Source: Elusimicrobiota bacterium
GTDB lineage: Bacteria; Elusimicrobiota; Elusimicrobia; Elusimicrobiales; UBA9959
NCBI GenBank assembly: GCA_019135865.1
Contig: JAGVVD010000022.1
Coordinates: 108,204-172,203, forward strand
DNA: 64,000 nt
Reading direction: 5' to 3'
Shown here in pieces: positions 23,748 through 63,373 of the stretch. How positions within the stretch are numbered: position 1 is the stretch's first letter; each line of letters begins with the position of its first letter. The notes under the pieces are model-generated. The model did not search any database. It had not been told where the DNA came from and was given only the letters and a program-made list of their open reading frames with translations. Position numbers and translations under genes: made by a program.

Positions 23748-25010
23748 CTACTTGGACTCTTCCTTTATCTCCGCCTTGGATTTTATGAAATCCATGGTCT
23801 TGTTTTCCACTATCGAGGCCCTGATATAATCCTTCCTGCGGTCGAACAGCTCGCGGGCCTTGTTCTTCTCCTCTTCGCTGGCCAGCCGGGCCAGCGCCTT
23901 CTGCAGCTCGGCGTCGACGTCCGCGTCGGTGGCCTCTATCTTCTCCTTGCGGGCGATGTTATGGAGCAGGTAGGTGAGGCGCAGGTTGCGCTCGGCTATC
24001 GGGGTGACGCGCTCGGCGAAGGCCTCCTCGCTGAAGTTCTCGTCGTTCTGCATGCGGCGCTTGAGCACCTCCATGAGCTCCTTGGACTCCTCCCTGACCA
24101 GAGTGGGGGGGAGCGACATCGGGTTGTGCTTTATCAGGTGGTCCTCCAGCTGCGAGAGCAGGTCCTTCTCGGTGCGCTCGGTCTCGCCGCGCTCGAGCAT
24201 GCCGCGCACGTTGTTCCTGAGTTCCTCCGCCGTCTTGACGCCGGCCTGCGAAAGGAACCCTTCGTCGAGCGCCGGCACCACCTTTTCCTTGACGTCCTGC
24301 ACGCGGGCCTTGAACTTGAGCTTGCGCCCGCCGAACTCCGAATCGAACTCGACGGTGTCGCCCTTCCTGGCGCCGAGGAGTTTCTCGGCCAGGCCGGCCA
24401 CGGTCTGGGGCGCGGACATGTCCACTATCTCGCCCTTCACGTCGCCGTCGGCGACCTTCTCGCCGTTCTCCCAGGTCTCGTAGTCGACCACGACGAAATG
24501 CGCGCCGGCTATCGGGGCGTCCTCGACCGGCTTGAGATAGGCGTTGTACTCGCGCAGCTGGTTCACGTACTTGTCGACATCCTCTTCGGAGACCTTTTTG
24601 ACGCGGCGCACCGCCCGGATCTTCTCGTAGTTCCTGGGCTCCAGTTTCGGGCTGCACTCCAGCTGGACTTCGAAATAGGCGGTCCCGCCGCTCTCGTACT
24701 TGACGTTCATCATCAGCGGCGTGACGACCGGCGCGGTCTTCTCGGCCCTGATGATCTCGGGCAGGGCGGCCTTCGCGAGTATATCGAGCGCCTCGTCGCG
24801 GACCATGGAGGGGAACTGCTCCCTGATCATGGCCAGCGGGACCTTGCCCTGGCGGAAGCCGGGCAGGGTCACCACGGCCTGCAGGCGCACCAGCGCCTGC
24901 TCCTGGACCTCGGCCAGGACTTCCTTGCCGGGATCGACCGCGTAGACATGGACGCAGCCGTCGGCCTTTATCTTCCTGATCTTGTCTCCGTAAGCGAGAG
25001 TGACGGGCAT
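23748..25010 (-). CDS. tig: trigger factor
   Basis: 420 aa starting MPVTLAYGD, preceded by AGGAGGA. The ribosome-binding signature GFRQGKVP is present. The longer ORF would run through tRNA-Leu. Confidence 0.9.
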
Positions 25011-25041
25011 TTTTCCTCCTGGGATAAGTCGAAGAACCTGA

Positions 25042-25059
25042 TGCCAGAGAGAGGACTCG
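25042..25059 (-). repeat. 18-nt duplicate of the tRNA-Leu 3' end
   Basis: The sequence tgccagagagaggactcg at 25042-25059 is identical to 25199-25216, which is the acceptor/T-arm 3' strand of tRNA-Leu. Confidence 0.8.
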
Positions 25060-25198
25060 GCCGCGGGTTCTCTCGTCGCCGCCGCTCCTCGGGCCCCGCG
25101 GCCCTGCCTCGCCGCTGCCGCCTGCCGGCTCGCGGCTCCGGCTTTCGAGTCCTCGCGCGAGCCGAACTTTCGGCTCGCTTCTTGCGCACGATAAATCG

Positions 25199-25279
25199 TG
25201 CCAGAGAGAGGACTCGAACCTCCACGCCTTTCGGCACACGGTCCTAAGCCGTGCGTGTCTGCCATTCCACCACTCTGGC
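25199..25279 (-). tRNA. tRNA-Leu (anticodon TAG)
   Basis: Reverse complement GCCAGAG..CACGG-CTTAGGA-CCGTG..long variable arm..GGAGGTTCGAGTCCTCT-CTCTGGC-A folds as a class II tRNA. CCA is not encoded. Confidence 0.85.
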
Positions 25280-25325
25280 GCCGGATAAAAGGGATAGTCC
25301 GGATTACGCGGCGAAGGCTTCAACT

Positions 25326-25352
25326 AAAAACCCCGTTCAGTAACGGGGTTTT
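25326..25352 (-). terminator. intrinsic terminator downstream of tRNA-Lys
   Basis: A ccccgtt/aacgggg stem with a 4-nt loop is followed by TTTTT on the minus strand. A- and T-runs lie on both sides. Confidence 0.6.
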
Positions 25353-25372
25353 CTCCGGCTGCGCTGTTTTTT

Positions 25373-25444
25373 TGGGCCGTACAGGATTTGAACCTGTAAC
25401 CTTACGCTTAAGAGGCGTCTGCTCTACCGTTGAGCTAACGGCCC
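25373..25444 (-). tRNA. tRNA-Lys (anticodon CTT)
   Basis: Reverse complement GGGCCGT-TA-GCTC-AACGGTA-GAGC-A-GACGC-CTCTTAA-GCGTA-AGGTT-ACAGG-TTCAAAT-CCTGT-ACGGCCC-A gives a cloverleaf with U33 and A37. Confidence 0.9.
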
Positions 25445-25536
25445 GGTGATTTTATTTTACATAAAAAATCCGGACAATGCAAAAACCGGACGGCCGTCCT
25501 TGCCGTCAAAACCCATAATTGCTAAATTAGTCCACG

Positions 25537-27582
25537 ATGAAGACCCTCCCGCTCCTTTCCTTAATATTCGCGCTGGCGGCGCCGGCGGCCGCGGACATGG
25601 AAAGCCCCGGCTCGGTATACCGCGGCGCGCTGCGGTCCTGGCTCGCCGGCCGGCCGGACGACGCTATCGAGGGGTTCAAGTACGCGGCCTTCATGTCTTC
25701 CGGCACGCCGCTCTCGCTGTCGGCCATGCGCGACGCGGCCGTCCTGCTGGCCGAGGCCGGCAAGCCGCAGGAAGCCGTGGCCTGGCTCTCGCGCGCGGAG
25801 ATCGCGTCGGAGGATGACCCTTACATAAACTACGAGAAGGGCTGGGACTTCCTGGCGCTGGAAAAACACGCCGAGGCCCGCAGGACCCTGGAGCGGACGC
25901 TGACGCTGACGGCGGACCCGGACCTTCTGGCCCACACGCGCTTCGCGCTGGCCATGGCGGAGGAAGGGCTCAGGGGACCGTCGGAGGCGATAGAGCGCTA
26001 CCGCGGGGTATACCAGTCGTATCCTTACCTGCTGGTGCCGGCCGCCGTGCGCATCAGCCGCAACTTCGAACTTCTCAAGAAAAGGCAGCATTCCGTGACC
26101 TTTCTGAAGGAAGCGCTGCTTTACGACCCGCGCAACCTGCAGGCCGCCATCGACCTGGCGCGCGTCTACGAAAAAGCGGAGTATTTCGTCCCCGCCTGGC
26201 AGACCTATTACACTCTCTCCGAAATAGACCCGGAGGAGCGTTTTTTCTCCGCCAGGAAGGAGAAGCTGGCCCGGCACACGAAGGGGAACCACCAGAACCT
26301 CCTTTACTGGACGCGCCTGGCCTGGCCCGTGCATACCGTGCCCGTGAAGCTCGACAAGGGCGAAGAGGCGGACATAGCGCTCTTCGCCGATAAGAAAGGC
26401 GTCCCTTCCACGGTCCGTTCGTTCAGCTTCATCTGCAATACCCCCTTCACGATAGAGGATTCGCGGCTGGGAAGGACGGCCGAGGGCCCCGGCGGGGCGC
26501 AATGGAGCGCCGCCTATAATCCCTTCAACCGCATCTACGAGGTCAAGGACACGGCGGCGAACCCGGTCTACTCCACCCGCAACACTTTCCGGATAGTCCC
26601 CAGGACCCCGGGCGGAGTGATCCTGCTGAAGAGCGCCGACCTGGCGGCCGCGGGCGGGGTGAACCGCGGCGACCGGGAGATCACGGGCGAACTGCTCGTC
26701 AACCTCCGCGAGGACGGTTTCGTGCTGATCGACCGCGCGCCGCTGGAGAACGTATTGCCGGCCATGACGGCCCGCGCGTCGGCCGGGGACCGCAATCCGG
26801 AATCCCTCAAGGCGCTGTCCGTCGTCTTCAGGACCCGGCTCCGCGGGCTTAAGGCCTCCATGCGCCACTCCCGCGACGGCTTCCACCTCTGCGACTCCGA
26901 CCACTGCCAGCCCTTCGACGGGATAAACACCGAGACCGCCGAAGCGGCGGACGCGGCCGCCGCCACGCGCGGCGAGATCCTCTCCGGGGCGGGCCTCCTG
27001 GCCGCCGGGGAGTACACGCCGTCCTGCGGCGGCTCCACCGAGAGCGGCATCAGCGACCTCAACCCTCTTCCCGCGGAACTGACCCCGTTCTCGCTTTCGC
27101 GCCATATGCACAAGGGCCCCCCGGACGCCATGCACTGCCTGCCGCCGGACAAGGCCTACGCTTCGGAGGCCAGCTGGACGCTCATACTGGAACCGCGCTG
27201 GATAGAGGACAGGGCCAACCGCGAACACAGGATAGGCAGGCTGCGCAACATACGCACGCTCGCGCGGACCCCGACGGGAAAGGTCGAGGCCATAAGACTG
27301 GAGGGCACCGCCGGGTCGGCGGAGATAAAAGGTTTCGGGGCGATCTCGGAGATCCTGGCCGCGGGCACCCTTCGCTCCCCGCTGTTCACGCTGCGCCCGC
27401 TCTTCGACGGCAGGTTCCCGTCCGCTTTCTTCGTCAAGGGGCTCGGCACCGGCGAGGGACGGGGCTACTGCGTCGCGGGGGGGAAAGGCCTGGCCGGCGG
27501 CCTGGGCTGGAAATACCGGGCGATACTCCGCCATTATTTCCCGTCGCTGACGGTCACCGGCGGCTCCGCGGAAAAGAGATAA
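25537..27582 (+). CDS. SpoIID/LytB-domain protein with N-terminal TPR-like region
   Basis: 681 aa with a signal peptide. The C-terminal part has the SpoIID-type blocks CDSDHCQPFDG, ATRGEILS and YTPSCGGSTES. The terminal GHGVGMSQ-like block is degenerate (GEGRGYCV). Confidence 0.75.
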   Translation: MKTLPLLSLIFALAAPAAADMESPGSVYRGALRSWLAGRPDDAIEGFKYAAFMSSGTPLSLSAMRDAAVLLAEAGKPQEAVAWLSRAEIASEDDPYINYEKGWDFLALEKHAEARRTLERTLTLTADPDLLAHTRFALAMAEEGLRGPSEAIERYRGVYQSYPYLLVPAAVRISRNFELLKKRQHSVTFLKEALLYDPRNLQAAIDLARVYEKAEYFVPAWQTYYTLSEIDPEERFFSARKEKLARHTKGNHQNLLYWTRLAWPVHTVPVKLDKGEEADIALFADKKGVPSTVRSFSFICNTPFTIEDSRLGRTAEGPGGAQWSAAYNPFNRIYEVKDTAANPVYSTRNTFRIVPRTPGGVILLKSADLAAAGGVNRGDREITGELLVNLREDGFVLIDRAPLENVLPAMTARASAGDRNPESLKALSVVFRTRLRGLKASMRHSRDGFHLCDSDHCQPFDGINTETAEAADAAAATRGEILSGAGLLAAGEYTPSCGGSTESGISDLNPLPAELTPFSLSRHMHKGPPDAMHCLPPDKAYASEASWTLILEPRWIEDRANREHRIGRLRNIRTLARTPTGKVEAIRLEGTAGSAEIKGFGAISEILAAGTLRSPLFTLRPLFDGRFPSAFFVKGLGTGEGRGYCVAGGKGLAGGLGWKYRAILRHYFPSLTVTGGSAEKR

Positions 27583-27587
27583 AGCCG

Positions 27588-28730
27588 ATGGCATTCACAC
27601 GGGTACTTCACGTAATAACCCGTCTCGACCTGGGCGGCGCCCAGGCCAACACGCTCTACACGGTAAAGCACCTCGACAAGGAGCGCTTCTCCCCTTTCCT
27701 GACCTGCGGCCTGGGCGGGGAACTGCAGAAGGACGCTCCCGACGGGATCACCCTTCCGCTGCGGCATCTGGTGCGCGAGATACGCCCGCTCGAGGACCTG
27801 CGCGCCTTCTTCGAGCTGCGCCGGACCATAAAGCGCCTTAAACCGGACATCGTGCACACCCATTCCTCCAAGGCGGGCGTGCTCGGCCGCCTGGCCGCGT
27901 TCTTCTCCGACGTGCCGGCCGTGGTCCACACCTTCCACGGCTTCGGCTTCAACGACAGGCAGCCGGCCCCGGTGCGCCTCTTCTACGTCCTGCTGGAGAA
28001 GTTCTGCGCCCGCCTTTCCGACGCGCTCCTCTTCGTCTCTTCCGCCAACATGGCCGAGGCCGAGGCGCGCGGCATCGGGGACAAGGCCCGCTACGCGCTG
28101 GTACGCAGCGGGATAAAATTATCCGAGTACCCAGCGCCCGACCGGCGGATCGAACTGCGGACCGAACTCGGCATACCGTACGGTGCGCCGATGGTCGTCT
28201 CCATAGGCAATCTCAAGCCCCAGAAGAACCCGGGGGATTTCTTCATCGCCGCCCGCCTGGCCGCCGAACGCCATCCCGACGCCGTCTTCGTCTTCGTCGG
28301 CGGCGGAGAGATGTCGGCGGCCGACTGGCGGCTGGCCGAACATCCCTCGCTCAAGAACCGGCTCTTCCTGCCGGGCTGGCGCAGGGACTCGGCGGAGATA
28401 CTCGCCGCCGCCGACATTTTCGCCATGACCTCCCTGTGGGAGGGACTGCCGCGCAGCCTGGTCGAGGCGCTGGCGACCGGCCTGCCCGCCGTCTGCTACG
28501 ACGCCGACGGGGTCCGGGACATACTGCGCGACGGCGTGAACGGCTTCCTGGTCAGGCGCGGTGACACGACCGCCATGTCGGACAGGCTTTCACGGCTCAT
28601 CCAGGACCGCGAACTGCGCCGCCGTCTCTCGGACGGGGCGCGCGCGACCGACCTTTCCGAATTCGACATCGACGCCATGGTGCGGGCGCAGGAGCGCCTC
28701 TACACGGCGCTGCTGGGGGGAAAACAATGA
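27588..28730 (+). CDS. glycosyltransferase family 4
   Basis: 380 aa. The N-terminal motif is GGAQANTL...VHTHSSKAG. The C-terminal motif is SLWEGLPRSLVEALATGLPAVCYDADGVRDIL. Confidence 0.85.
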   Translation: MAFTRVLHVITRLDLGGAQANTLYTVKHLDKERFSPFLTCGLGGELQKDAPDGITLPLRHLVREIRPLEDLRAFFELRRTIKRLKPDIVHTHSSKAGVLGRLAAFFSDVPAVVHTFHGFGFNDRQPAPVRLFYVLLEKFCARLSDALLFVSSANMAEAEARGIGDKARYALVRSGIKLSEYPAPDRRIELRTELGIPYGAPMVVSIGNLKPQKNPGDFFIAARLAAERHPDAVFVFVGGGEMSAADWRLAEHPSLKNRLFLPGWRRDSAEILAAADIFAMTSLWEGLPRSLVEALATGLPAVCYDADGVRDILRDGVNGFLVRRGDTTAMSDRLSRLIQDRELRRRLSDGARATDLSEFDIDAMVRAQERLYTALLGGKQ

Positions 28731-29674
28731 GTCCCGAGCTCTCCGTGGTGATCCCCGTTCTCAACGAGCGGGACAATGTCCTGGACCTCTGGGACTCGCT
28801 CAAGGCCGCGCTGAAACCCCTGGACGGGGACTGGGAATGCGTCTGGGTGGACGACGGGTCCTCCGACGGCACCTGGGAACTGCTCTCCGGCCTGGCCGAC
28901 GCGGAGCCGGAATGCCGGGCGGTATCCCTGGCGCGCAATTTCGGCCAGACGGCCGCGCTCAGCGCCGGCATAGCCGCGGCGCGGGGGGAATACATCGCGG
29001 CCCTCGACGGCGACCTGCAGAACGACCCGGCCGATATCCCGGCGATGCTCGCGGCGGCGAGGGACGGCGCCGACGTGGTCAGCGGCTGGCGCAGGGACCG
29101 CAGGGACCCGTTCCTCTCGCGGGTGCTGCCGTCCCGGGCGGCGAACTGGCTGATCTCGGCCGTGACCGGGGTGCGGCTGCGCGACTACGGCTGCACGCTC
29201 AAGGTTTACCGCGCCTCGTTCCTGAAAGAACTGGAACTTTACGGCGAGATGCACCGTTTCCTGCCGGCGCTGGCCGGTTACCGCGGGGCCTCGATAAAGG
29301 AAGTGCCGGTCTCGCACCGGCCCCGTACGCGCGGGAATTCCAAGTACGGGCTCTGGCGCATCTTCAAAGTGACGCTGGACCTGCTGACCGTGAAGTTCAT
29401 GGGCGATTACCTTACCAAGCCGATCTACGTTTTCGGCGGCACCGGGCTCCTGCTCGGCCTCTCCTCCGCGATAATGGCCGGCTGGACGCTCTACAATAAA
29501 CTGGCCGACGGCGTCTTCGTGAAGGACCAGCCGCTCTTCCTGGTCGCCATCTTCTTCGCCCTCGTCGGCACTCAGTTCATACTCCTCGGCCTCATCGCCG
29601 AGATGCTGATGCGCACCTACTACGGGGCGTCCGGAAAGCCGCCCTACCGCGTCCGCCGCAAAGCCGGCTTCTGA
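28727..29674 (+). CDS. glycosyltransferase family 2, polyprenyl-phosphate sugar transferase-like (ArnC/DPM1-like)
   Basis: 315 aa. The GT-A fold motifs are present (LSVVIPVLNE, VDDGSSDGT, ALDGDLQNDP). Two C-terminal TM helices follow. Confidence 0.85.
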   Translation: MSPELSVVIPVLNERDNVLDLWDSLKAALKPLDGDWECVWVDDGSSDGTWELLSGLADAEPECRAVSLARNFGQTAALSAGIAAARGEYIAALDGDLQNDPADIPAMLAAARDGADVVSGWRRDRRDPFLSRVLPSRAANWLISAVTGVRLRDYGCTLKVYRASFLKELELYGEMHRFLPALAGYRGASIKEVPVSHRPRTRGNSKYGLWRIFKVTLDLLTVKFMGDYLTKPIYVFGGTGLLLGLSSAIMAGWTLYNKLADGVFVKDQPLFLVAIFFALVGTQFILLGLIAEMLMRTYYGASGKPPYRVRRKAGF

Positions 29675-29735
29675 TCCCGGCTCCGGCCGCCGTCCCCGGC
29701 CTCCCCCCGGGATTCCTGGGCCGACGCATCCAATC

Positions 29736-29932
29736 GGTTCCCCGAAGGCTCCCGCGCTCGTCACGGTTCGGGTTTTCCGGGCCCACCCTTCGCTCGTTCG
29801 GCCTCGCAAGAACTCGGCCGTCGCGCATAGCGCTAGGCCTCAAACATTCTTGCTCGTCCGCAGAGCGGTACCCTCTCTCGCTCGGGGGAAAACCCTCCTC
29901 ATGTGACTCGCTGCGGGAGCCTCCGGGGAACC
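29736..29932 (-). repeat. intergenic structured repeat, module 1, copy A
   Basis: The reverse complement aligns end to end with 36561-36759. The termini 29736-29755 and 29913-29932 are complementary at 19 of 20 positions. Confidence 0.8.
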
Positions 29933-29954
29933 GACCTGTTAAACGTCCCATCTA

Positions 29955-30105
29955 AGGAGACAGCCGGGGGAGGCGTACCCTCACCGGAGCAAAACCCTTC
30001 GGAGCCGCGAGCTTGCATAAGCGCGAGCGGCGAGAACGGGAAGGGCGCGCACGGTGTGCGCGACCCTGTTTTTGCGAGGTGAGGGCACGCCATGCCCCCG
30101 GCATA
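29955..30105 (+). repeat. intergenic structured repeat, module 2, copy A
   Basis: It shares aggagacagccgggggaggcg and catgcccccggcat with 53621-53770 (reverse complement). It shares aaacccttcggagccgcgagctt and ggcgagaacggga..ggcgcgcacggtgtgcgcgacc with 52299-52512 (reverse complement). Confidence 0.8.
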
Positions 30106-30186
30106 GTTCTTCGTATTGCCTGCGGATGGGACGGGGGGGGCGGATTGACTTGCGGGCCGATAGTTAATATCTTATACGCTCTTATC

Positions 30187-30684
30187 ATGGAAGACGGCGA
30201 AAAGCACGCGCATAAGAACAGCCCCTTCGTCTTCCGCCAGTCCGAGATCCGGGCCGGCGGCGGACTGCACCGCGTAATAGAGTGCGACACGGCCCTTTTC
30301 GCGGACGCCCTGGAGGGCAAAGGCGCGCTCCTGTCCCTCACCGCCGAGGCCGATTTCTCCGTCGGCAGCGGGGACCTGCTGCTGGAAGGGGGGATAAAGG
30401 CCGCCGCGGCCCTCCCGTGCGACCGCTGCAACGCCGATTTCAGGGCCTCCCTCGCCGAGTCTTTTGACGAGGTTTACGAATATTCAGTAGAATCAATAGA
30501 CATCGAGGACCTGGTCCGCCAGGCCCTGGTGCTCGCGGTCCCGGCTAAGATTTTATGCTCGGACGGCTGCAAAGGTCTTTGTACCCGCTGCGGGGCCGAC
30601 CTGAACGCCGGGCCCTGCAAATGCGGTCCGGGGCGGGACGGCCCTTTCGGCGCCCTGCGCGATTTGAAGAACAAGGAGCCATGA
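30187..30684 (+). CDS. yceD: YceD/DUF177 family protein (large-subunit rRNA accumulation protein)
   Basis: 165 aa from MEDGEKH. The C-terminal motif CSDGCKGLCTRCGADLN..CKC is present. The gene sits immediately upstream of rpmF, as is usual. Confidence 0.8.
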   Translation: MEDGEKHAHKNSPFVFRQSEIRAGGGLHRVIECDTALFADALEGKGALLSLTAEADFSVGSGDLLLEGGIKAAAALPCDRCNADFRASLAESFDEVYEYSVESIDIEDLVRQALVLAVPAKILCSDGCKGLCTRCGADLNAGPCKCGPGRDGPFGALRDLKNKEP

Positions 30685-36065: not shown

Positions 36066-36531
36066 AAACGCGCTCGAAGCCCTCAAGGCCAGGCTCGGCG
36101 GCAAGGTCGTCGAAACCTCCTCCTTCCGCGGCGACGATACCGCCGTAGTAACGCCCGAAGCCTGGCTGGAGGCCGCCTCCGCGCTGAAGAACGGACTCGG
36201 CTTCGATTTCCTCATGGACCTCTGCGGCGCCGACTACCTGCCGCGCGAGCCCCGCTTCGAGGTCGTCTGCCATTTCTACAGTTCGAAGACCGGCGCCCGC
36301 CTGCGCCTCAAGACCCGCCTGCCCGGAGGCAAACCGGCCGTGGATTCGCTGGCCGGCCTCTGGCTCTCCGCCGACTGGTTCGAGCGCGAGGCCTGGGACA
36401 TGTACGGCATAGATTTCAAGGGCCATCCCGACCTGCGCCGCCTGCTGATGTACGATTCCTTCGAGGGCCATCCCCTGCGCAAGGATTACCCGCTCAAAGG
36501 CCGCCAGCCGAGGATAGACCATGCGGATTAA
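36055..36531 (+). CDS. nuoC: NADH-quinone oxidoreductase subunit C
   Basis: 158 aa. The conserved NuoC block ADWFEREAWDMYGIDFKGHPDLRRLL is present. Confidence 0.95.
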   Translation: MTAENALEALKARLGGKVVETSSFRGDDTAVVTPEAWLEAASALKNGLGFDFLMDLCGADYLPREPRFEVVCHFYSSKTGARLRLKTRLPGGKPAVDSLAGLWLSADWFEREAWDMYGIDFKGHPDLRRLLMYDSFEGHPLRKDYPLKGRQPRIDHAD

Positions 36532-36560
36532 GGGAACAACGGGGATGCCGAGAAAGGCGG

Positions 36561-36759
36561 GGTTGACGGACGGACTTGCGGCGAGTCACATGCGGAGGTT
36601 TTTCCTCGAGCGAACGAGGGGACCGGCACTGCCGGACGGGCATGATTGTTCGAGGCCCGAGGCGCTATGCGCCCGGGCCGAGTTCGTGCCCGGCCGAGTG
36701 AGCGAAGAGCGGGCCCGGAAAAACCGGACCATGACGAGCGCGAGGCCGTCCGGCAAACC
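36561..36759 (+). repeat. intergenic structured repeat, module 1, copy B (between nuoC and nuoD)
   Basis: It aligns with the reverse complement of 29736-29932. Shared blocks are gcgagtcacatg.ggagg, cgagcga, gcgctatgcgc, ggccgagttc, gagcgaag, gggcccggaaaa and gacgagcgcg. Its own termini are complementary. Confidence 0.8.
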
Positions 36760-36812
36760 GACGCACTTCGTGGTGAGCCGGCGGCAGCACCACAAAGTTC
36801 TCCACTAATAAC

Positions 36813-51689: not shown

Positions 51690-52298
51690 TCATAAAAAGC
51701 CGTTCTTCCCGAGCGCCTCGCGCAGGGCGGAGTCGCCCGCGGCGCCGGCGCGCGCGTATTTGCCCAGGATGTCGTATTCGATGTTGACGGCGGAGCCGGG
51801 CCTGAGGGCGCCGAGCGCGGTATTGGCCCAGGTGTGGGGGATAATGGCGGTCCTGAAGGAGCGCGGGGTGACGGCGAAGACGGTCAGGCTGACGCCGTCG
51901 AGCGCGACGGAGCCCTTCTCGACCATGACCGCGCCGGCGCCGGTCTCCAGTACGAGGGTGAAGCTGTTGGCTTCTTTATGGACGGCGAGCAGTTTCACCG
52001 TCCCGTCTATGTGGCCGGTGACGAAATGGCCGCCGAGGCGGGCGCCGATCTTGAGCGCGCGTTCCAGGTTGAGCGGCGCGCCGGGGCCCAGCAGGCCCAG
52101 CGCGGTACGCGAGCGGGTCTCGGGGCTGAGGTCGAAGAGGGCCGCGCGGCCCTTTGCCGAGATATAAGTGAGGCAGGCGCCGTTGACGGCCACGCTCTCG
52201 CCGGTCTCCAGCTTCCAGCCGGCCGGCACTTCCACGGCCAGTCTCCCGCCGCCATATGACTTCAGCTTTCCCACCGCTTCGATTATTCCCGTGAACAT
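51690..52298 (-). CDS. ribE: riboflavin synthase alpha chain
   Basis: 202 aa starting MFTGIIE. The duplicated lumazine-binding halves are present (GESVAVNGACLT and GSVALDGVSLTV). Confidence 0.9.
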   Translation of the reverse strand: MFTGIIEAVGKLKSYGGGRLAVEVPAGWKLETGESVAVNGACLTYISAKGRAALFDLSPETRSRTALGLLGPGAPLNLERALKIGARLGGHFVTGHIDGTVKLLAVHKEANSFTLVLETGAGAVMVEKGSVALDGVSLTVFAVTPRSFRTAIIPHTWANTALGALRPGSAVNIEYDILGKYARAGAAGDSALREALGKNGFL

Positions 52299-52512
52299 AA
52301 GTGAAAATTATCGGGGGTCCTGTCGGCGGTTCGCTGCGAAAAAACGCGGTCGCGCACACCGTGCGCGCCGCTCCCGTTCTCGCCGCGAGCGCTCGCCCTG
52401 CGCCTCCGTTCCGCGAGAAGCGACGCGGTGTAGTACTTCGGCGCGGGCTCCGTAAGCTCGCGGCTCCGAAGGGTTTTTCTCCGCGAATCCGCCGCCACCC
52501 CCCATTGCCTCC
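52299..52512 (-). repeat. intergenic structured repeat, module 2, copy C (between ribD and ribE)
   Basis: The reverse complement shares the core of 29955-30105 and carries a roughly 45-nt internal insertion. It fills the whole 214-bp ribD-ribE gap. Confidence 0.8.
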
Positions 52513-53604
52513 TCATTTAAAAATAACCTCCAGCATCAGGTCGGGGCCGAGGCGCCGAATATCCTTCACTTCGGCCTGCACGCCCAGCGTCTTGCGGGCG
52601 GCGTTGAGCCTGTCGGGCCAGACGACGGAACTTTTAGAGTCCGTGCCGCCGATGACCATGGGCGCGATGATGCAGCAATAGCGGTCCACCAGGCCCTGGC
52701 TGATGAAGGAACCGGCGACTTTTCCGCCGCCCTCCACTAGTATGTGGCTTATCCCTATGGAGCCCAGCGCCTTGAGCAGCGCCGGCAGCGAAGGCCGCCC
52801 GTCGCGGTCCTTGGGAAGTTCCAGCACTTCGGCGTGGGCGGGGAGGCGCTTTACGGCGGCGGCCGGGGCCTTGCCGACGACGGCGACGATGACGCGGTCG
52901 TTCTTGAAGACCCGCGCTTTGGGCGGTATGCGCAGCCGGGAATCGAGTATGACCACCCAGGGCTGGCGCGGGACTTTGAAACCGCGGACATTAAGCAACG
53001 GGTCGTCCGCCAGCACCGTACCGACGCCGGCGATCACGGCGTCGGCTTCGGCGCGCAGCTTATGGGCGAAGCGGCGCGACTGCGGCGACGAGATCCAGCG
53101 CGAACGGCCGGCCGCGTCGGCTATCCTGCCGTCCAGGCTCTGGGCCGTCTTGAGCGTGACATAAGGCAGGCGGGTGCGCATATACTTGGCGAAGGCCGGA
53201 TTGAGCGCCTCGCATTCGCGGCGCAGCAGCCCCGTCTTAACCTGTATGCCCGCGGCGCGGAGTATCTCGCCGCCGCGGCAGCTGTGGCAGGGATTGGGGT
53301 CGGACGCGCCGATGAAGACGCGCGCTGCGCCGGCCGCCTTTATCGCTTCGGTGCAGGGCGGGGTCTTGCCGTGGGTGGAACAGGGCTCCAGCGTGACATA
53401 GAGGTCGGCGCCGCGGGCGCGGCCCCCGGCCTTCCTCAGCGCGGCCGCCTCGGCGTGCGGGCCGCCGAAGCAGGCGTGCCAGGCCTCGGCGATGATCCGG
53501 CCCTTTTTGGCCAGTACCGCGCCGACGATGGGATTGGGGTGGGCGCCGCAGCTGCCGCGCCGCGCCAGCGCTATCGCCCGCCGCATCAGTTCTTTATCGG
53601 TCAT
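52513..53604 (-). CDS. ribD: bifunctional riboflavin biosynthesis deaminase/reductase
   Basis: 363 aa from MTDKELMRRAI. The deaminase Zn motifs are HAEAAAL and PCSTHGKTPPC. A C-terminal reductase domain follows. Confidence 0.9.
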   Translation of the reverse strand: MTDKELMRRAIALARRGSCGAHPNPIVGAVLAKKGRIIAEAWHACFGGPHAEAAALRKAGGRARGADLYVTLEPCSTHGKTPPCTEAIKAAGAARVFIGASDPNPCHSCRGGEILRAAGIQVKTGLLRRECEALNPAFAKYMRTRLPYVTLKTAQSLDGRIADAAGRSRWISSPQSRRFAHKLRAEADAVIAGVGTVLADDPLLNVRGFKVPRQPWVVILDSRLRIPPKARVFKNDRVIVAVVGKAPAAAVKRLPAHAEVLELPKDRDGRPSLPALLKALGSIGISHILVEGGGKVAGSFISQGLVDRYCCIIAPMVIGGTDSKSSVVWPDRLNAARKTLGVQAEVKDIRRLGPDLMLEVIFK

Positions 53605-53620
53605 AGCAACAAGGAATATC

Positions 53621-53770
53621 CATGCCGGGGGCATGTCGGGGCGGCAGCGCGCGAAACACGGGCTCTCGCGCATAGCGCTCGGCCCTCCTCACTCGGCCTC
53701 CGCGCTTGCGATGCTCCGGCCTCCGTGAAGGTTTCGCTAAGCTGCCGCCCCGCCTCCCCCGGTTGTCTCC
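53621..53770 (-). repeat. intergenic structured repeat, module 2, copy E (between ribH and ribD)
   Basis: The reverse complement starts aggagacaaccgggggaggcg directly after the ribH TGA and ends catgcccccggcat, as in copy A. An internal perfect 10-bp stem pairs 53638-53647 with 53742-53751. Confidence 0.75.
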
Positions 53771-54229
53771 TCACAAATGCCGGAACAGGTCGGCCATTTC
53801 GATGGCGGCCATGGCGGCCTCGGCGCCCTTGTTGCCCTGCTTGGTGCCGCAGCGCTCGATGGCCTGCTCCAGGTTGTCCGCGGCGACGACGCCGAAAATG
53901 ACCGGTTTCTTATGGCGCATGGAGACTTCGGCCACGCCCTTGGCCGTCTCGGCCGCGACCAGGTCGAAGTGCGGGGTGTCTCCGCGGATGATGACGCCCA
54001 GGCAGATGACGGCGTCATAATTGCCGGCGGCGGCCTTGTCGGCGGCCAGCGCCAGTTCGTAGGCGCCCGGCACTTTTACCAGGGTTATGTCCTTCTCGTC
54101 GGCGCCGTGCCTCTTCAGCGTGTCGACGGCCCCGTCGGCCAGCTTGCCGGTCAGGAAGTCGTTGAACCGGGACACGGCCAGAGCGAACTTGAGTTTATCC
54201 GCTTTGAGTTTTCCTTCTATTATCTTCAT
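53771..54229 (-). CDS. ribH: 6,7-dimethyl-8-ribityllumazine synthase
   Basis: 152 aa. Conserved blocks are FALAVSRFN, VPGAYELA and VICLGVIIRGDTPHFD. Confidence 0.95.
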   Translation of the reverse strand: MKIIEGKLKADKLKFALAVSRFNDFLTGKLADGAVDTLKRHGADEKDITLVKVPGAYELALAADKAAAGNYDAVICLGVIIRGDTPHFDLVAAETAKGVAEVSMRHKKPVIFGVVAADNLEQAIERCGTKQGNKGAEAAMAAIEMADLFRHL

Positions 54230-54237
54230 TCGTCCTC

Positions 54238-55428
54238 CTAAATGAACATATGCCCGAGCTTGCGGGCCTTCGTCGCCAGATATTTCCTGTTGTGCGCGTT
54301 GGACTTCATCACCAGCGGAACGCGCTCCGCTATTTTAAGGCCGTAGCCGCCCAGACCGGCCAGCTTGCGCGGGTTGTTCGTCAGCAGCCGCAGGCGGCGG
54401 ACGCCGAGGTCGGAGAGTATCTGCGCGCCGGTGCCGTAGTCGCGCAGGTCGGCGGGAAAGCCCAGCGCCAGGTTGGCCTCGACGGTGTCGTAGCCCTTGT
54501 CCTGGAGCGCGTAGGCTTTTATCTTGTTGCCCAGTCCTATGCCCCGGCCCTCCTGGCGCATATAGAGCAGGATGCCCGAACCCTCCTTCGCTATGGCGGC
54601 CAGGGCGGCGTCGAGCTGCTCGCCGCAATCGCAGCGCCGCGAACCGAAGACATCGCCGGTCAGGCACTCGGAGTGCACCCGCACCAGCGCCGCGGGGCCG
54701 GGCTCGCCCTTCACCAGCGCGATATGCTCCAGGCCGGTGAGCTTTTCGCGGTAAACGTGCATCGTAAAAACGCCGTGGGAGGTGGGGAGCGCGGCCGTGG
54801 CGTGCTTCTCGACCAGGGTCTCGCGGCCGCGCCGGTACTTTATGAGGTCGGCGATGGTGGCCAGCTTGAGGCGGTGGCGGCGGGCGAAGGCCCTGAGCTG
54901 CGGCATGCGGGCCATGCTGCCGTCGGAGCGCATGATCTCGCAGATGACGCCGGCGGGGCGCAGGCCGGCGAGGTTAAGGAGATCGACGCAGGCCTCGGTA
55001 TGGCCGGCGCGGACCAGCACGCCGCCGGGCTTGGCGCGCAGCGGAAAAATATGTCCGGGACGGGTGAAATCGGCGGGGACGGAAGAGGGGGAAGCGAGGG
55101 CCTTCAAGGTGCGTGACCTGTCGGCGGCCGAGATCCCGGTCGTGACCCCCTTTTTGGCGTCGACGGAGATGGTCCAGGCCGTCTTGTACGGGTCGGAGTT
55201 GTCGCGCTCCATCGGGAAAAGGTCCAGGCGGCAGGCCAGGTCCGCCGAGAGCGGGCAACAGAGCAGGCCGCGCGCTTCCCTGACGATGAAATTGACCTTC
55301 TCCGGCGCGGCGAACTGCGCCGCCATGACTATATCGCCCTCGTTCTCGCGGCTCTCGTCGTCGGCCAGGACGACCATGCGGCCGTTCCTCACGTCCTTTA
55401 TTATCTCCGCTATCGGGGCGAAATCCAT
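54238..55428 (-). CDS. ribBA: bifunctional DHBP synthase / GTP cyclohydrolase II
   Basis: 396 aa. The DHBP synthase motif is [10 protein letters not shown]. The GTP cyclohydrolase II motif is [22 protein letters not shown] lies upstream. Confidence 0.95.
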
Positions 55429-55470: not shown

Positions 55471-55511
55471 GGAAAAGCCGCACAAAAACCGCGCGCGGCC
55501 TTTACATCGGT

Positions 55512-55643
55512 CCTTCTCTCATCCGGACTTTACCGTCGGCCCCGGGATCTCACCGGGTCCTGCCTCGGGCTGCCGCCCTCGGCTCGCGGGCTCGCCGCTT
55601 TCGCGGACCACCGCCGGTGGGGAATCTCGCCCCGCCCTGAAGA
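55512..55643 (-). promoter_or_regulatory. FMN riboswitch (RFN element) aptamer
   Basis: The minus strand contains the conserved RFN blocks AGGGCGGGGCGAGATTCCCCACCGGCGGT, CCCGCGAGC, GGACCCGGTGAGATCCCGGGGCCGACGGTAAAGTCCGGATGAGAGAAGG. It lies in the 5' leader of ribBA. Confidence 0.9.
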
Positions 55644-55652
55644 ACCGCTTTA

Positions 55653-55826: not shown

Positions 55827-57653
55827 GTGAGCGCCGCGGAACCCCGGTCCGGGCCCGAGATCGGTTTCCTCTGGGACGCCATGTCCAGCGCCCAGGAGGA
55901 AGCCGAACGGCTTTCCGGCGACTACTCGAAGATCGTCAAGCGGACCGAGGAGCTCGATTCCCGCCTGGCCCATCTGGACCGCCTGCTGCTGGAAGCCGCC
56001 GCTCGTGAAACGGCGCTGAAGGCCGAGATCGAGGCCCTGCACGCCGCCGCCGCGGACAAGGACGAACTCGTCAAGAAGGCCGCGGGCCTGCTGCAGGCCC
56101 ACGCGGCCATGGCGGAGCGGGCGGAAAAACTCGCGGCCCTTCTCGATTCGGAAAAGGAGCGCGTGGCGCTCATGGAAGCGGAGCGCGCCGGCCTGGAAAA
56201 TTTCGCGAAAGGGGAGGAGGCCCGGGCGGCGGCGCTGGAGGAACGTTTCCGGGCCATAGCGGCCATCGAACCGCTGGCGAAAGTGCTGGACGCCGCCGCG
56301 CGGGGAGCGGAGAGCCGCGTTTCACCCGAGGAGATACTGACCAGGCTGACCTCGGCCGACGCGGAGACCGCGAAGCTTTCCGCCGCCCTGGAGGCGCGTT
56401 CCAAAGAGGCCTCCGAACTGGCGGAGAAAATAGCCGCCCTCGCGGCGGGAAAAGAAGCGGTGGAAAAGCAGCTGAAACTGACCGCGGAACGGGCGGCGGA
56501 ACTGGAAAGCGAACTGACCGCCCTCAAAGCTTCCGCCGGACGCGCGCAACTGGCGACGCGGGAAGCCGCGGACGCAGCGGACCGGGTGGACCGCGCCGCC
56601 CACGACAAACTCCTCGACAGGCTGGCCGCGGCCGAAACCGAGACCGGCAGGCTGTCCGCCCAGCTGGAGGCGCGCCTGACGGAAGCCTCCTCGCTGGCCG
56701 CCGAAATAACCGGTCTCAAGGCGGGCAAAGAGGCGCTGGAAAAAGAACTTTCGCTTGCCCGGGAACGGGCGCAGGTACTGGAGCGCGAACTGACCGCTCT
56801 TAAAGCCTCCGCAGCTGGCCCGGCCCGGGAGACGCCGGAGGCCGTGTACGACGCGGGAGGGGTGGACCGCGCTTCGCACGATAAGCTCCTCGCCAGGCTG
56901 ACCGCGGCCGAAGCCGAGACCCGCAGACTCTCCGCCGACCTGGAAACCAACATTAGAGAGGCCTCTTCCCTGGCCGGCGAGATCGTCGGACTGAAGGCGG
57001 CCAAAGAGGCGCTGGAAAAGCAGCTGACCCTGGCGGCGGAACAGACGGCGGCGCTGCAGCGCGAACTGGCCGTCGCCAAAGCCGGCGGCGGCGCGGAACA
57101 GGGACCGGGAAAAGCGCCGGCCGGTCTGGACGACGCTGAGAAGAAGCTGGCGGCGGTGCAGGCCGAACTGCTGGAGTTGCGCGGACGGGAAGAGGAACTG
57201 AGGAAAAAGGACTTCGGGCGCGAAGCCGAGCTGACCGCCCTGCGGAACCAGCTCGCGGAGGCGCAGGTCCAGATAGAACAGGAGAAGCACGACTTCGAGG
57301 AAGCCGCCAATACCGTTTTCGACCTGCAGGGCGAGACCGCCTCGCTGAGTTCCAGCCTGGAAGAAGCGCTGGCGCGGGAGAAGGCCCTCGCCGCCAGGCT
57401 CGGCGAAGGCGGCGCCCCGGCGGACACACGGGGACAGGCCGCGCTCGCCGAAAAGCTCGGCGGGGAACTGAACAGGATCTCGGAGAAACTCTCTCTTTTC
57501 AGCGGACGTCTGGCGGACCCGGAGCGCGCGGAACTGGCCGCCCTGCTCAAGGAGCTGGCCGCCGCGGCCGCGCTGCTCAAGACCTGGCGGGCCGGCGGCG
57601 GCGGGTCCGGGGCCGGAGAACCGCCGCCGACCCCGCCGACGGAACCCCGTTGA
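55827..57653 (+). CDS. Ala/Glu/Leu-rich coiled-coil protein with three about 92-aa tandem repeats
   Basis: 608 aa with a GTG start preceded by GGGGAGG. Heptad-like A/E/L composition runs throughout, with strong GC3 bias. The C-terminus is Gly/Pro-rich. Confidence 0.7.
   Translation: MSAAEPRSGPEIGFLWDAMSSAQEEAERLSGDYSKIVKRTEELDSRLAHLDRLLLEAAARETALKAEIEALHAAAADKDELVKKAAGLLQAHAAMAERAEKLAALLDSEKERVALMEAERAGLENFAKGEEARAAALEERFRAIAAIEPLAKVLDAAARGAESRVSPEEILTRLTSADAETAKLSAALEARSKEASELAEKIAALAAGKEAVEKQLKLTAERAAELESELTALKASAGRAQLATREAADAADRVDRAAHDKLLDRLAAAETETGRLSAQLEARLTEASSLAAEITGLKAGKEALEKELSLARERAQVLERELTALKASAAGPARETPEAVYDAGGVDRASHDKLLARLTAAEAETRRLSADLETNIREASSLAGEIVGLKAAKEALEKQLTLAAEQTAALQRELAVAKAGGGAEQGPGKAPAGLDDAEKKLAAVQAELLELRGREEELRKKDFGREAELTALRNQLAEAQVQIEQEKHDFEEAANTVFDLQGETASLSSSLEEALAREKALAARLGEGGAPADTRGQAALAEKLGGELNRISEKLSLFSGRLADPERAELAALLKELAAAAALLKTWRAGGGGSGAGEPPPTPPTEPR
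56313..57090 (+). repeat. intragenic tandem triplication, 276-nt period
   Basis: Units starting near 56313, 56589 and 56865 encode (H)DKLL.RL.AAE.ET.RLSA.LE....EASSLA.EI.GLKA.KEALEK.L.LA.E....L.RELTALKAS. DNA identity is about 75% by eye. Confidence 0.7.
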
Positions 57654-61892: not shown

Positions 61893-61975
61893 CGCCAAAG
61901 ACTCCCATCCTCCGGCATTAACATGATTGGTATATTGATAAATGTCCGTCTGTTTTGTGTAAAATTCTTGAATAG

Positions 61976-62164
61976 TCCGGGATATGGGGTTTAAGGGACC
62001 TGCCGGACAGTGCCACGCTTACAGACGACCACCTGCCCGACGCGACCACGGTCTACGCGGGCATGGAGGGGTTCTCGGTGACGCCGTCGAGCGCGGACGG
62101 GCGCGTCACGGTCAGGTACGCGGTGCCGTCGGACCGCTTGCTGGCACTTGGTATGCATACTTGA
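61976..62164 (+). pseudogene. start-less coding remnant at the GC-content junction
   Basis: An open frame encodes ...LPDSATLTDDHLPDATTVYAGMEGFSVTPSSADGRVTVRYAVPSDRLLALGMHT*. It has core-like GC3 bias but no start codon or RBS at its 5' end. AT-rich sequence lies on both sides. Confidence 0.35.
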
Positions 62165-62306
62165 CAACGCGGCGGCAGTCTGTAAGAATATGGCGGTCGG
62201 CGCAGGACAGGGGAAAAGGGGCGGGCCGATGTTTTCAAAATTCAATTCTAACGGGAGCCGCGCGCTTCGGGCGTGCGGCTTTGTCTATTGCCATGGAGGA
62301 AAAACT

Positions 62307-63368
62307 ATGAACCGCATCATTGCAGGAGTTCTCATCATGCTGTCGCCTTGCGCCGCCTTGGCGCAGGAAGCGTCCACCGCCGCGGACCAGGTGCCGATAG
62401 AGGAATACGTGCCCAAGGTCATCATTGAGGGCAAATGGGGCACGGGGCCGGGCGAGTTCGGCCGGCAGGGCGATTTTGATTATGACCTGGAACCCGGAAG
62501 CCTTGCCGTTGATTCCAAAGGGAACATCTATATCCTTGATTTTGTCAATAACCGGATACAGAAGTATTCCTCCGAAGGCAAGCATTTAATGGACATCTCG
62601 GTAGATGGCTTGAAAGGCCCCGTGCAATGTTGGGCCGTCAGGCGTTACGATGAATCAGAGAAGCGACATATCTGGTCCGTAGGTGCCACGGCGGAAAAAC
62701 CGTCTGGCGTCCCCGACAGCGATTTACAGGCTTATATCTGGCCTCCCGAAGTCCAGGGCATCAACATCGTGATAGACAGCAAAGACACGCTGTATTACTA
62801 CCTCAAGCGCAACAAAGAAGGCAAAGAAACCGGCGAGGTGTGGGAGTTCAAGAACGATAAGCTGGTGAAGAAGACGGTGGTGCCGAGCGTTCCCGGCGGA
62901 CTTAGCTGTCATGACGGGGATTTATGGATAACGGAATATCCATACGAATTCGTGAAAACCGATATCGGGTCTGATTTTAATGTGTTCGAGGGCAAAAAGT
63001 ATCTCAGAAAAGATGTTAATGAATTAAAAAAGCAAAAGGTGGCGGCATCTGTTCAAGCCTCCAGAAATAATAAAGAGCGCCATGTTTTACGGCCGGGCTC
63101 AAAAGAAGGAGTAAGGCTGGAGCCTGTTCCCGGCGAAGAATTCGTAAGTCCTGGAGCGATACGCGATTCGAAGGCGCTAGTCACCAGTCTTAGAGGAAAG
63201 GAGAAAATCCTGAACGAATATAACCTTTCCGGAAAACTGCTGCGCCGCCTGCGAGCAGATAGCAGGCCTCGGAACGGTTTCCGCGACTCGCGAGAGAATT
63301 TTTACATTATTTCGGCCGACAACACTGGCATTAAAGTGACACGACATAGCCGAGAAGCCATGAGGTGA
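62307..63368 (+). CDS. secreted NHL-repeat / beta-propeller protein
   Basis: 353 aa from MNRIIAGVLIMLSPCAALA, preceded by GGAGGA. An NHL-like unit is present (GTGPGEFGRQGDFDYDLEPGSLAVDSKGNIYILDFVNNRIQKY). GC content is low. Confidence 0.7.
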   Translation: MNRIIAGVLIMLSPCAALAQEASTAADQVPIEEYVPKVIIEGKWGTGPGEFGRQGDFDYDLEPGSLAVDSKGNIYILDFVNNRIQKYSSEGKHLMDISVDGLKGPVQCWAVRRYDESEKRHIWSVGATAEKPSGVPDSDLQAYIWPPEVQGINIVIDSKDTLYYYLKRNKEGKETGEVWEFKNDKLVKKTVVPSVPGGLSCHDGDLWITEYPYEFVKTDIGSDFNVFEGKKYLRKDVNELKKQKVAASVQASRNNKERHVLRPGSKEGVRLEPVPGEEFVSPGAIRDSKALVTSLRGKEKILNEYNLSGKLLRRLRADSRPRNGFRDSRENFYIISADNTGIKVTRHSREAMR

Positions 63369-63373
63369 TCGAT

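Follow-up and report, generated by a model that had tools for sequence, protein, structure and literature searches.

The 512-nt gap that separates a family-2 glycosyltransferase gene (GT2, 28727-29674) from yceD (30187-30684), itself followed by rpmF, was studied in a stretch of 64,000 nt from an Elusimicrobiota bacterium (contig JAGVVD010000022.1 of assembly GCA_019135865.1; hereafter the window, GC content 64.5%). We conclude that two elements probably make up this gap as a composite, both belonging to a family of small mosaic mobile repeats of the ERIC/Correia/REPIN type that is lineage-specific, non-coding and non-autonomous. As judged from its sequence, the family appears to be previously undescribed and specific to a GC-rich Elusimicrobiales clade. 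[quoted passage not shown] The second possibility is favored because copies are limited to one lineage, relatives have empty sites, mosaics differ between genomes, orientation is mixed, helices consist of Watson-Crick pairs only and nothing in Rfam matches; a dedicated RNA is contradicted by the empty sites.

The two recurring elements of the gap, here called modules 1 and 2, were recovered where the first-pass annotation had placed them, by blastn and by profile hidden Markov models (HMMs), in both cases far beyond chance. For module 1, copy A at 29734-29934 aligns in inverted orientation with 36578-36761, at 79% identity over 185 nt (blastn E 5e-37); the downstream copy announced earlier was thereby confirmed and extended to 36554-36761. 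Module 2 copy A matches two further inverted regions, 52314-52483, with 88% identity over 57 nt and 97% over a further 30 nt, and 53614-53771, with 69% identity over 160 nt (E 3e-8), and these two copies, also announced earlier, now span 52296-52515 and 53608-53773. When the 64 kb were searched by nhmmer with HMMs trained mostly on copies from other genomes, exactly five copies were found, with E-values from 1e-53 to 2e-6. The remaining copies are located at the nuoC-nuoD, ribH-ribD and ribD-ribE junctions, and Pfam supports the identity of GT2 and YceD at the main gap and of NuoC/NuoD and RibH/RibD/RibE at the other copies. The rib genes form an operon (ribBA-ribH-ribD-ribE, 51690-55428, minus strand) led by an FMN riboswitch (55507-55648, minus strand, 98.9 bits), and module-2 copies sit in two of its three intercistronic junctions. 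Copy C occupies the whole ribD-ribE gap, from the TGA of ribD to 15 nt before the ribE ATG, and copy E the ribH-ribD gap, from the TGA of ribH to 18 nt before the ribD ATG. In the window, module 2 is oriented sense in all three of its copies.

The family was then followed in other genomes (their loci and contigs are designated L below). A degenerate 21-mer derived from the module-2 5' end (AGGAGRCARYSGGGGGWGGCG), common to the three window copies and matching three times in the window against 0.06 expected, was scanned over one genome per prokaryotic species and returned 39 loci. A complete element is present in 29 of them, which belong to six Elusimicrobia/Elusimicrobiales/Elusimicrobiaceae metagenome-assembled genomes (MAGs; 12, 5, 4, 3, 3 and 2 loci). 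The other ten come from unrelated phyla and show the bare 21-mer, roughly as many as expected by chance. Module 1 accompanies 16 of the 29 complete elements, usually just upstream of module 2, inverted as in the window and joined to it by the conserved linker; the junction …GCCCGTCAAGCGYCCCATAAGGAGAC likewise lies upstream of module 2 in about 14 of the 29 loci of other MAGs. A third module (…GCAGCACCCGGAATKGTTCTCCTTA) often follows module 2 and also closes the nuoC-nuoD element of the window, and 3' modules related to this module 3 come after module 2 in L005, L009, L012 and L023. The two modules of the first-pass annotation were an understatement: at least three types of module, together with outer frames, make up the mosaic of this family.

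No match to a described element was obtained. In the window, Rfam 15 at gathering thresholds detected nothing but the FMN riboswitch and two tRNAs; with the cutoff relaxed to E <= 10, the sole hit in the gap was a 14-bit chance match to COG2908, in agreement with the first-pass annotation, which had been unable to assign the element to a known RNA class. The check for a known insertion sequence or MITE returned no hit either. No similar sequence was found in IMG/VR viral contigs, GenBank phages or PLSDB plasmids, and a phage, plasmid or viral origin was rejected on this basis. A blastn search with the gap against 5,426 genomes of E. coli, a carrier of ERIC and BIME, gave no match, and our literature search found no account of Elusimicrobia repeats. 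An assembly artefact was also rejected, as independent assemblies from ENA, JGI, NCBI and Logan are concordant. Contigs of several independent assemblies stop inside or beside elements (L002, L010, L012, L031, L035, L040 and L045), as expected for dispersed repeats, which fragment short-read assemblies.

Orthologous sites were compared between genomes. The genome of the window is close to the MAG binchicken_co20_337, whose contig L040 is 96% identical to window 23791-29676, with a GT2 that is 97% identical. At the main site, L040 holds an orthologous copy of module 1 copy A and an extra inverted module 2 with linker directly after the GT2 stop. In three Logan contigs (L051-L053, YceD 90% identical) the site is empty: the GT2-yceD spacer is only 52 nt long and consists of TGA, ten bases, TTGACT-17-TATCTT and a short leader. 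The DNA inserted in the window, upstream of this promoter-like site, amounts to about 467 nt (29678-30144). In L050 (MAG co37_74) the same position is taken by another mosaic, some 410 nt long. The left part of the inserted block is missing from the empty sites and can be partly aligned to L040; its tail is common to the filled site of L050 (…GGGAGCGGA-TTGACT) and missing from the empty ones. The last 42 nt or so of the gap (30145-30186) are kept in filled and empty relatives alike, and the promoter scan gave one site there against 0.1 expected. The first-pass annotation had been right to place the modules in the 512-bp gap, but this last segment is the promoter-like site and short leader of yceD. 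The TTGACT-17-TATCTT site sits about 14 nt upstream of the yceD ATG, with no Shine-Dalgarno sequence, and occurs in all relatives, which suggests that the yceD-rpmF-plsX transcript may be very short-leadered or leaderless.

At the nuo site, nuoC and nuoD overlap as TGATG in four contigs (L044-L047, NuoC 86-88% identical) and are separated by 37 nt in the outgroup L049 (67% identical), against 281-311 nt in the window and in L043 (92% identical). The last codons of nuoC can be aligned (H-K-D-stop in empty sites, H-A-D-stop in filled ones), so that the insert can be placed precisely after the stop codon and before the ATG. Where the window has module 1, the same frame encloses a module-2-like core in L043. 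The left outer frame is identical in L043 and missing from L044-L047, and the right one is 46/46 identical to L043. In L048 (positions 1614-1800 of JAVVFK010000074.1, MAG TamC13-45), nuoC is followed by unrelated sequence, an N run and minus-strand genes, with no nuoD; this appears to be a scaffolding join or a rearrangement exactly where other genomes carry the element.

For the rib sites, a metagenome scan with RibD returned one relative only, L042 (RibD 92% identical), which informs both junctions. There ribD and ribE overlap as TAATG, where the window holds the 214-nt copy C. The ribH-ribD site is filled in both genomes by different subfamilies, and the copy of L042 carries a closing stem like that of window copy C, which suggests local copying or conversion. 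Altogether, three of the four window sites are empty in relatives with 83-92% protein identity. Another orthologous site displays three distinct mosaics in three genomes, one of them with the module-1 closing stem but without its core, and at one further site full and short forms were found in L015 and L041. Over the time in which species diverge, elements thus appear and disappear, are replaced and recombine.

The units are imperfect palindromes of 140-220 nt each, and all copies fold far below the energies of shuffled sequences (z from -5.3 to -8.7): module 1 copy A at -122 kcal/mol (z -8.7), module 1 copy B at z -5.3 and module 2 copy A at -95.4 kcal/mol (z -7.7). The stems quoted by the first-pass annotation are all present as written. 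Module 1 copy A forms a long branched hairpin, closed by a stem in which ggttccccgaaggctcccgc pairs with gcgggagcctccggggaacc at 19/20 positions, and the change of its local hairpin from ccgc-tct-gcgg in copy A to ccggc-act-gccgg in copy B was borne out. Module 2 comprises four nested parts. The outermost is an inverted repeat, with (CA)TAAGGAGAC… as its left arm and …GTTCTCCTTA(TG) as its right arm; within it lie a conserved helix (CCGGGGG/CCCCCGG with GGCG/CGCC), a closing stem of 8-10 bp whose sequence differs between copies by paired changes, and a three-way junction with a conserved branched core. The CCGGGGG...CCCCCGG frame noted earlier is present and measures exactly 138 nt in copies A and E. 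Copy A combines its variable closing stem and three-way-junction core with the 5' end TAAGGAGACAGCCGGGGGAGGCG and the 3' end CATGCCCCCGGCATAGTTCTTC.

The ends of the units read (CA)TA-AGGAGAC…CCGGGGG on the left and, inversely, CCCCCGG…GTTCTCCT-TA(TG) on the right. In the 29 loci and the window, the terminal inverted repeats (TIRs) are (CA)TAAGGAGAC..CCGGGGG and CCCCCGG.ATAGTTCTCCTTA(TG), and TA stands next to the left end in 27 of 32 copies and next to the right end in about 14 of 20 terminal copies. Of the two IS/MITE features named in the first-pass annotation, TIRs (TAAGGAGAC.../...GTTCTCCTTA) exist, but no target duplication was demonstrated.

Module 2 has size variants. Long module-2 forms such as window copy C have an extension of about 55 nt at one branch tip, and short forms retain the terminal hairpin only. 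The deletion end points of the short forms vary: L041 reads GGAGGCG-CGCCATG, and L038 and L017 read GGAGGCGTGCC-CCCGG, compatible with slippage between TGCCC repeats. The short forms were thus read as deletion derivatives, since their end points differ and one fits TGCCC slippage. The idea that closing stems are split target hairpins, with short forms as the empty targets, was rejected, because the end points differ and the arms are unlike the empty-site sequences. The 11-nt hairpin GCGC-TAT-GCGC, flanked by GGCC…GGCC, occurs at 29823-29833, 36662-36672 and 53668-53678; both module 1 and subfamily E of module 2 have it at their apex. This shared hairpin may be a site of protein recognition or a sign of common descent of the modules.

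Covariation was analyzed on 16 copies of module 2 from seven genomes. The RNAalifold consensus contains 45 pairs, and 99% of the cells are standard pairs. Double changes were found in 24 of the 45 pairs, compared with 10.1 +/- 1.8 in shuffles (0/500 reach 24) and 1-7 in slid controls; counted by cell, there were 74 double changes and 3 single-sided ones. Module 1 (14 copies, two subfamilies) forms a multi-branched hairpin with 13 compensatory pairs. The fold is under strong constraint in both modules. The selection on secondary structure proposed by the first-pass annotation is well supported, with paired cells at 99% and compensatory changes well above shuffles, and the additional copies and significant covariation on which it had made its proposal depend were both obtained.

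Coordinates of the family members and adjoining segments in the window.
Feature	Coordinates	Strand	Remarks
Left part of inserted block	29675-29733		GC-rich spacer or degenerate remnant, no full module; directly after GT2 stop
Module 1 copy A	29734-29934	-	Inverted relative to copy B; nhmmer 29732-29938, E 3e-47
Conserved linker between modules 1 and 2, CCTGTTAAACGTCCCAT	29935-29951	+	Belongs to the recurring arrangement of inverted module 1 and forward module 2
Module 2 copy A	29952-30118	+	nhmmer 29953-30118, E 1e-34
Tail of inserted block	30119-30144		Between module 2 and yceD promoter
yceD promoter-like site TTGACT-17-TATCTT and short leader	30145-30186	+	Outside the element; without Shine-Dalgarno sequence
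Left outer frame of nuoC-nuoD element, TAAGGGAACAACGGGGATGCCG	36529-36550	+	Begins with nuoC stop codon
Module 1 copy B	36554-36761	+	Between nuoC and nuoD; nhmmer E 1e-53
Right outer frame ('module 3', TTCGTGGTGAGCCGGCGGCAGCACCACAAAGTTCTCCACTAATAAC)	36767-36812	+	Finishes at nuoD ATG
Module 2 copy C, long form	52296-52515	-	Insert of about 55 nt in one branch; nhmmer, two segments, E 5e-8 and 2e-6
Module 2 copy E	53608-53773	-	nhmmer E 1.5e-43

The branched, covarying interior is as clean as that of a functional RNA, yet the constraint on it is the same on both strands. Between co-directional gene pairs in other genomes, the independent sites of module 2 number 5 in sense and about 8 in antisense orientation, and many copies have convergent or divergent genes on their two sides. 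With respect to local GC skew, module 2 faces the G-rich strand in 17 of 32 cases; there is no bias, and the replication-strand preference expected of single-stranded DNA transposition of the IS200/IS605 kind was rejected on this count. In those helices that are predicted on both strands, 98-99% of the cells are Watson-Crick. The rare other cells include 3 G·U against 5 A·C in module 2 and 5 G·U against 2 A·C in module 1, and each strand only adds private G·U pairs. Forward strands fold 4-9 kcal/mol better. This advantage was rejected as a sign of RNA function: each strand simply gains G·U pairs of its own and, because the modules are mutually inverted in the common composite, no single transcript has both of them the better way round. 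The constraint is strand-symmetric, which fits a DNA element folding on either strand, or copies transcribed both ways, and is unexpected for a dedicated RNA gene.

It is accordingly extremely unlikely that the yceD-rpmF-plsX, nuo and rib operons have in this element a structured RNA of their own, whether cis-regulatory (a riboswitch or leader) or catalytic (a ribozyme). The very stable predicted folds, the strong covariation and the sense orientation of the three window module-2 copies would all agree with such an RNA, but the element is missing at three of four sites in close relatives that express the same operons, and antisense copies are at least as frequent as sense ones in other genomes. 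Moreover, the element of the main gap lies upstream of the conserved yceD promoter and hence outside the yceD transcript, the adjoining genes are unrelated from locus to locus, Rfam offers no match even at E <= 10, and the helices are Watson-Crick-only on both strands. A gene-specific regulator of yceD, nuo or rib was rejected because of the empty orthologous sites and the mixed orientation. The scan for intrinsic terminators found only two short internal hairpins with poor T runs, and a terminator role is unlikely because elements also occur within the nuo and rib operons, in which stopping transcription would be costly or lethal. Another explanation dispenses with selection on the fold altogether: paired changes would result from arm-to-arm correction of palindromes (mismatch or templated repair in hairpins or cruciforms) together with gene conversion. 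The 74 to 3 ratio of double to single-sided changes, the strand-symmetric constraint and the identical mosaic segments in otherwise diverged orthologous copies would agree with such correction. However, the elements are branched, with conserved bulges, junction nucleotides and loops, the covariation also extends to internal helices of 4-5 bp, where arm-to-arm repair is unlikely, and the architecture is kept across widely differing subfamilies (A and E share 69% identity). We consider neutral correction very unlikely.

As to the way in which the family spreads, units insert into intergenic DNA in either orientation, very often right after a stop codon and beside or inside earlier copies. Inserted units then recombine, swap cores and lose interiors by slippage, giving rise to the observed mosaics. 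We propose that copying is performed by an enzyme acting in trans and probably recognizing the folded single strand or the terminal repeats, as for REPIN-RAYT, ERIC and Correia. The fold might be kept for copying, and/or because it renders the insert harmless when transcribed in operons. An enzyme that recognizes folded single-stranded DNA, as in the REPIN-RAYT system, would by analogy explain both fold and strand symmetry and fits part of the data; however, the GTAG/CGTC head that defines REP is missing, and about 350 kb of locus sequence revealed no Y1 transposase.

A classical MITE would spread differently. It would be an internally deleted, TA-targeting DDE transposon of the IS630/Tc1-mariner type, mobilized through AGGAGAC…/…GTCTCCT with TA duplication, and its fold would be a by-product. 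Consistent with this, the TIRs are bordered by TA in most copies, and the flanks of L039 read GTTCCA-TA…TA-TGGAAC. In a 65% GC genome TA is largely limited to stop codons and spacers, so that TA targeting would account for elements that frequently start at a TAA stop, the first A of the element restoring the codon. The design is common to ERIC, Correia and RUP, for which a TA-targeting DDE transposase (IS630/Tc1 type) has been proposed (PMC2229807). On the other hand, TA is absent from the junction of two empty sites, TGATG (nuoC/D) and TGAACCGCCC (GT2/yceD), the covariation throughout the interior is not explained by a TIR-binding transposase, no autonomous copy was seen in the same 350 kb, and orthologous sites show replacements and core swaps, not clean insertions. 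A classical MITE is thus somewhat unlikely, and a strict MITE label is premature, as it needs a target duplication or a cognate transposase.

Several observations also weigh against a mobile repeat family as such. No target-site duplication was demonstrated, TA being palindromic and inseparable from the inverted repeat, and among the empty sites TGATG, TAATG and TGAACCGCCC, TA is present in only one of three. No transposase or autonomous partner was found in the roughly 350 kb: ten open reading frames (ORFs) with low third-position GC in the loci encode HEAT repeats, a glycosyltransferase, GcpE and other ordinary proteins but no transposase, and no TIR pairs 0.4-3.5 kb apart enclose a gene. 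The 406-aa ORF at 62148-63368 was rejected as a partner because its product is an NHL-repeat protein. Internal covariation exceeds the need of a classical TIR-binding transposase. Finally, resident copies are conserved in excess of their surroundings. The outer frames of the nuoC-nuoD element are identical at 68/68 positions between the window and L043, against 87% for nuoC third positions (the neutral chance of which we calculate as about 8e-5); L006 and L025 share 98% identity in module 2, with flanks at 87%; and a module-1 core of about 100 nt is identical between L022 and L035, with flanks at 89%. This excess conservation could reflect gene conversion among copies, re-insertion into old copies or purifying selection on each copy.

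Copies inside operons have a regular position. They start at the upstream stop codon, T[AG]A-GG[AG]G (UGA-GGAGA, UGA-GGAGG, UAA-GGGAA), and finish 10-18 nt before the downstream ATG. The genes nuoD, ribD and ribE have no Shine-Dalgarno (SD) sequence of their own, and most other downstream genes retain theirs. The ancestral nuoC/nuoD and ribD/ribE junctions are stop/start overlaps, and minimum free energy (MFE) folds of the window and of two independent relatives, L042 and L043, bring the stop codon of the upstream gene and the AUG of the downstream one together at the base of one helix. One could imagine that the family spread as DNA but that resident copies are now kept for a useful transcribed hairpin, acting as an RNase III/E site, a 3'-end stabilizer or a coupling bridge across the 200-300-nt insert. 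Besides the stop-to-ATG span, the SD-less genes with ancestral overlaps and the MFE folds, such domestication is favored by the conservation of resident copies above flanking third-codon positions, and has precedents in Correia with RNase III and ERIC with RNase E (PMC2229807). It is nevertheless unlikely: orientation to transcription is mixed, many copies having convergent or divergent neighbors; wobble pairs are no commoner than A·C mismatches, which gives no hint that one RNA strand is selected; most other downstream genes keep their own SD; and coupled junctions would be left with nothing but harmless insertions by survival bias alone.

In a more specific model, which we regard as quite doubtful, the ends of the element would have evolved to colonize translationally coupled junctions without breaking them, a 'structure-bridged' coupling. 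A transcript of either orientation would open with a stop codon and an SD-like GGAG (UAAGGAG), and the 140-280-nt hairpin would bring the upstream stop and the downstream AUG to the base of one helix. The terminating ribosome would melt this helix, be held by the GGAG and re-initiate across the hairpin. As the ancestral junctions are overlapping stop and start codons, the hairpin may preserve translational coupling. If true, the model would explain the missing SDs and the ancestral TGATG/TAATG overlaps, as well as the conservation above synonymous sites and the selection on the whole fold.

Other features of the window were noted during the analysis. The region 25060-25198, which the first-pass annotation had listed as a weaker copy of module 2, is no member of the family: it gave a 35-nt blast hit with 80% identity (E 0.027), and neither profile detects it at E <= 10. 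It is really a separate 140-nt insert between a tRNA-Leu gene and a direct repeat of the tRNA 3' end. This tRNA-Leu(tag), on the minus strand, finishes at 25199, and its last 17 nt (GAGTCCTCTCTCTGGCA, 25215-25199) are directly repeated at 25058-25042. The GC-rich insert enclosed by the two repeats, which delimit the region 25042-25215, folds at -76 kcal/mol, is 98% conserved in L040, and a 46-nt piece of it recurs in L034. From its sequence, it looks like an att-type integrase scar or a small element inserted into the 3' end of the tRNA. A 608-aa ORF (55827-57653, plus strand) contains, at 56303-57091, a 276-nt repeat present three times in tandem (64-74% identical), and probably encodes a repetitive, coiled-coil-like protein. 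The end of the window (61893-64000), which encodes the 406-aa NHL/beta-propeller repeat protein (62148-63368), has a third-position GC much below that of the rest and may be foreign DNA. Finally, a 95-aa ORF (36521-36808, plus strand) spans module 1 copy B and its frames between nuoC and nuoD, with an atypical GC content by codon position. It has no Pfam hit and copies differ by indels of 1-2 nt; coding potential of the elements was rejected. This ORF is spurious, although gene callers may annotate it.

The family adds an abundant and strongly structured repeat to a poorly studied phylum. It accounts for the fragmentation of these genome assemblies, as contigs end inside elements. Annotators should avoid calling spurious ORFs over the elements (e.g. 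36521-36808) or naming them riboswitch-like RNAs. Copies have become fixed in essential operons, precisely where the stop codon of one gene and the start codon of the next overlapped (nuoC/nuoD, ribD/ribE), and the family thus represents a natural test case of how bacteria tolerate or exploit large hairpins in polycistronic mRNAs.

We compared the family with known bacterial repeats. De Gregorio et al. 2005 is reportedly a further source for the ERIC features considered here. Bacterial MITE-like repeats are characterized by TIRs, terminal TA and long RNA stem-loops (PMC2229807). YPAL/RU-2 (Yersinia, 168 bp) differs from the Elusimicrobia family by target duplications of 3-26 bp and the lack of terminal TA, whereas no duplication was detected in our family, and the sequences are unrelated. 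Like our family, however, YPAL is not A+T-rich, is about 170 nt long with strong dyad symmetry, targets sites at or near dyad symmetry, and was recognized through filled and empty sites (PMC2229807).

REP/BIME and REPIN-RAYT share with the Elusimicrobia family the nature of GC-rich extragenic palindromes and of mosaics of several motif types. REPIN hairpins, in which compensatory changes are common, resemble those of our family in this respect (PMC3116915), and both are persistent and conserved across related species. Hairpin remnants of 20-30 nt in our family resemble single REPs; its full units are 5-10 times longer than REPs and branched. The terminal hairpins begin with CCGGGGG or GGTTCCCC, and no conserved GTAG/CGTC head was found at their foot; CGTC and GTAG occur in some copies of module 3 and are not conserved in the window copy. 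No RAYT gene turned up in the locus sequence, and no genome-wide protein search of these MAGs was made.

The Correia/NEMIS repeats of Neisseria, hairpins of 100-155 nt, resemble the Elusimicrobia family by their high copy number and terminal TA, by their co-transcription with neighboring genes, and by the existence of full-length and internally deleted forms. The Correia terminal repeat is not in the window, and neither an IHF site nor an outward promoter is evident in the family, whose branched cores are larger than the Correia hairpin. The Correia hairpin is an RNase III substrate, which by analogy would be a plausible fate for the Elusimicrobia elements.

ERIC/IRU (127 bp) differs from the Elusimicrobia family, which has no sequence similarity to it, is GC-rich, comes from a different phylum, has a covarying branched three-way-junction core with heavy nesting and mosaicism, and in which TA duplication was not demonstrated. 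Their shared features are nevertheless many. Like the elements described here, ERIC/IRU are imperfect palindromes of 100-200 nt, intergenic and mostly transcribed, found in either orientation, with TIRs and terminal TA, and frequently abutting stop codons; they have size variants arising from indels at fixed points and fold into long RNA hairpins (PMC2229807). Altogether, the behavior of the Elusimicrobia family is nearest to that of ERIC/IRU, Correia/NEMIS, YPAL and REP/BIME/REPIN, while by its sequence it is a member of none of them.

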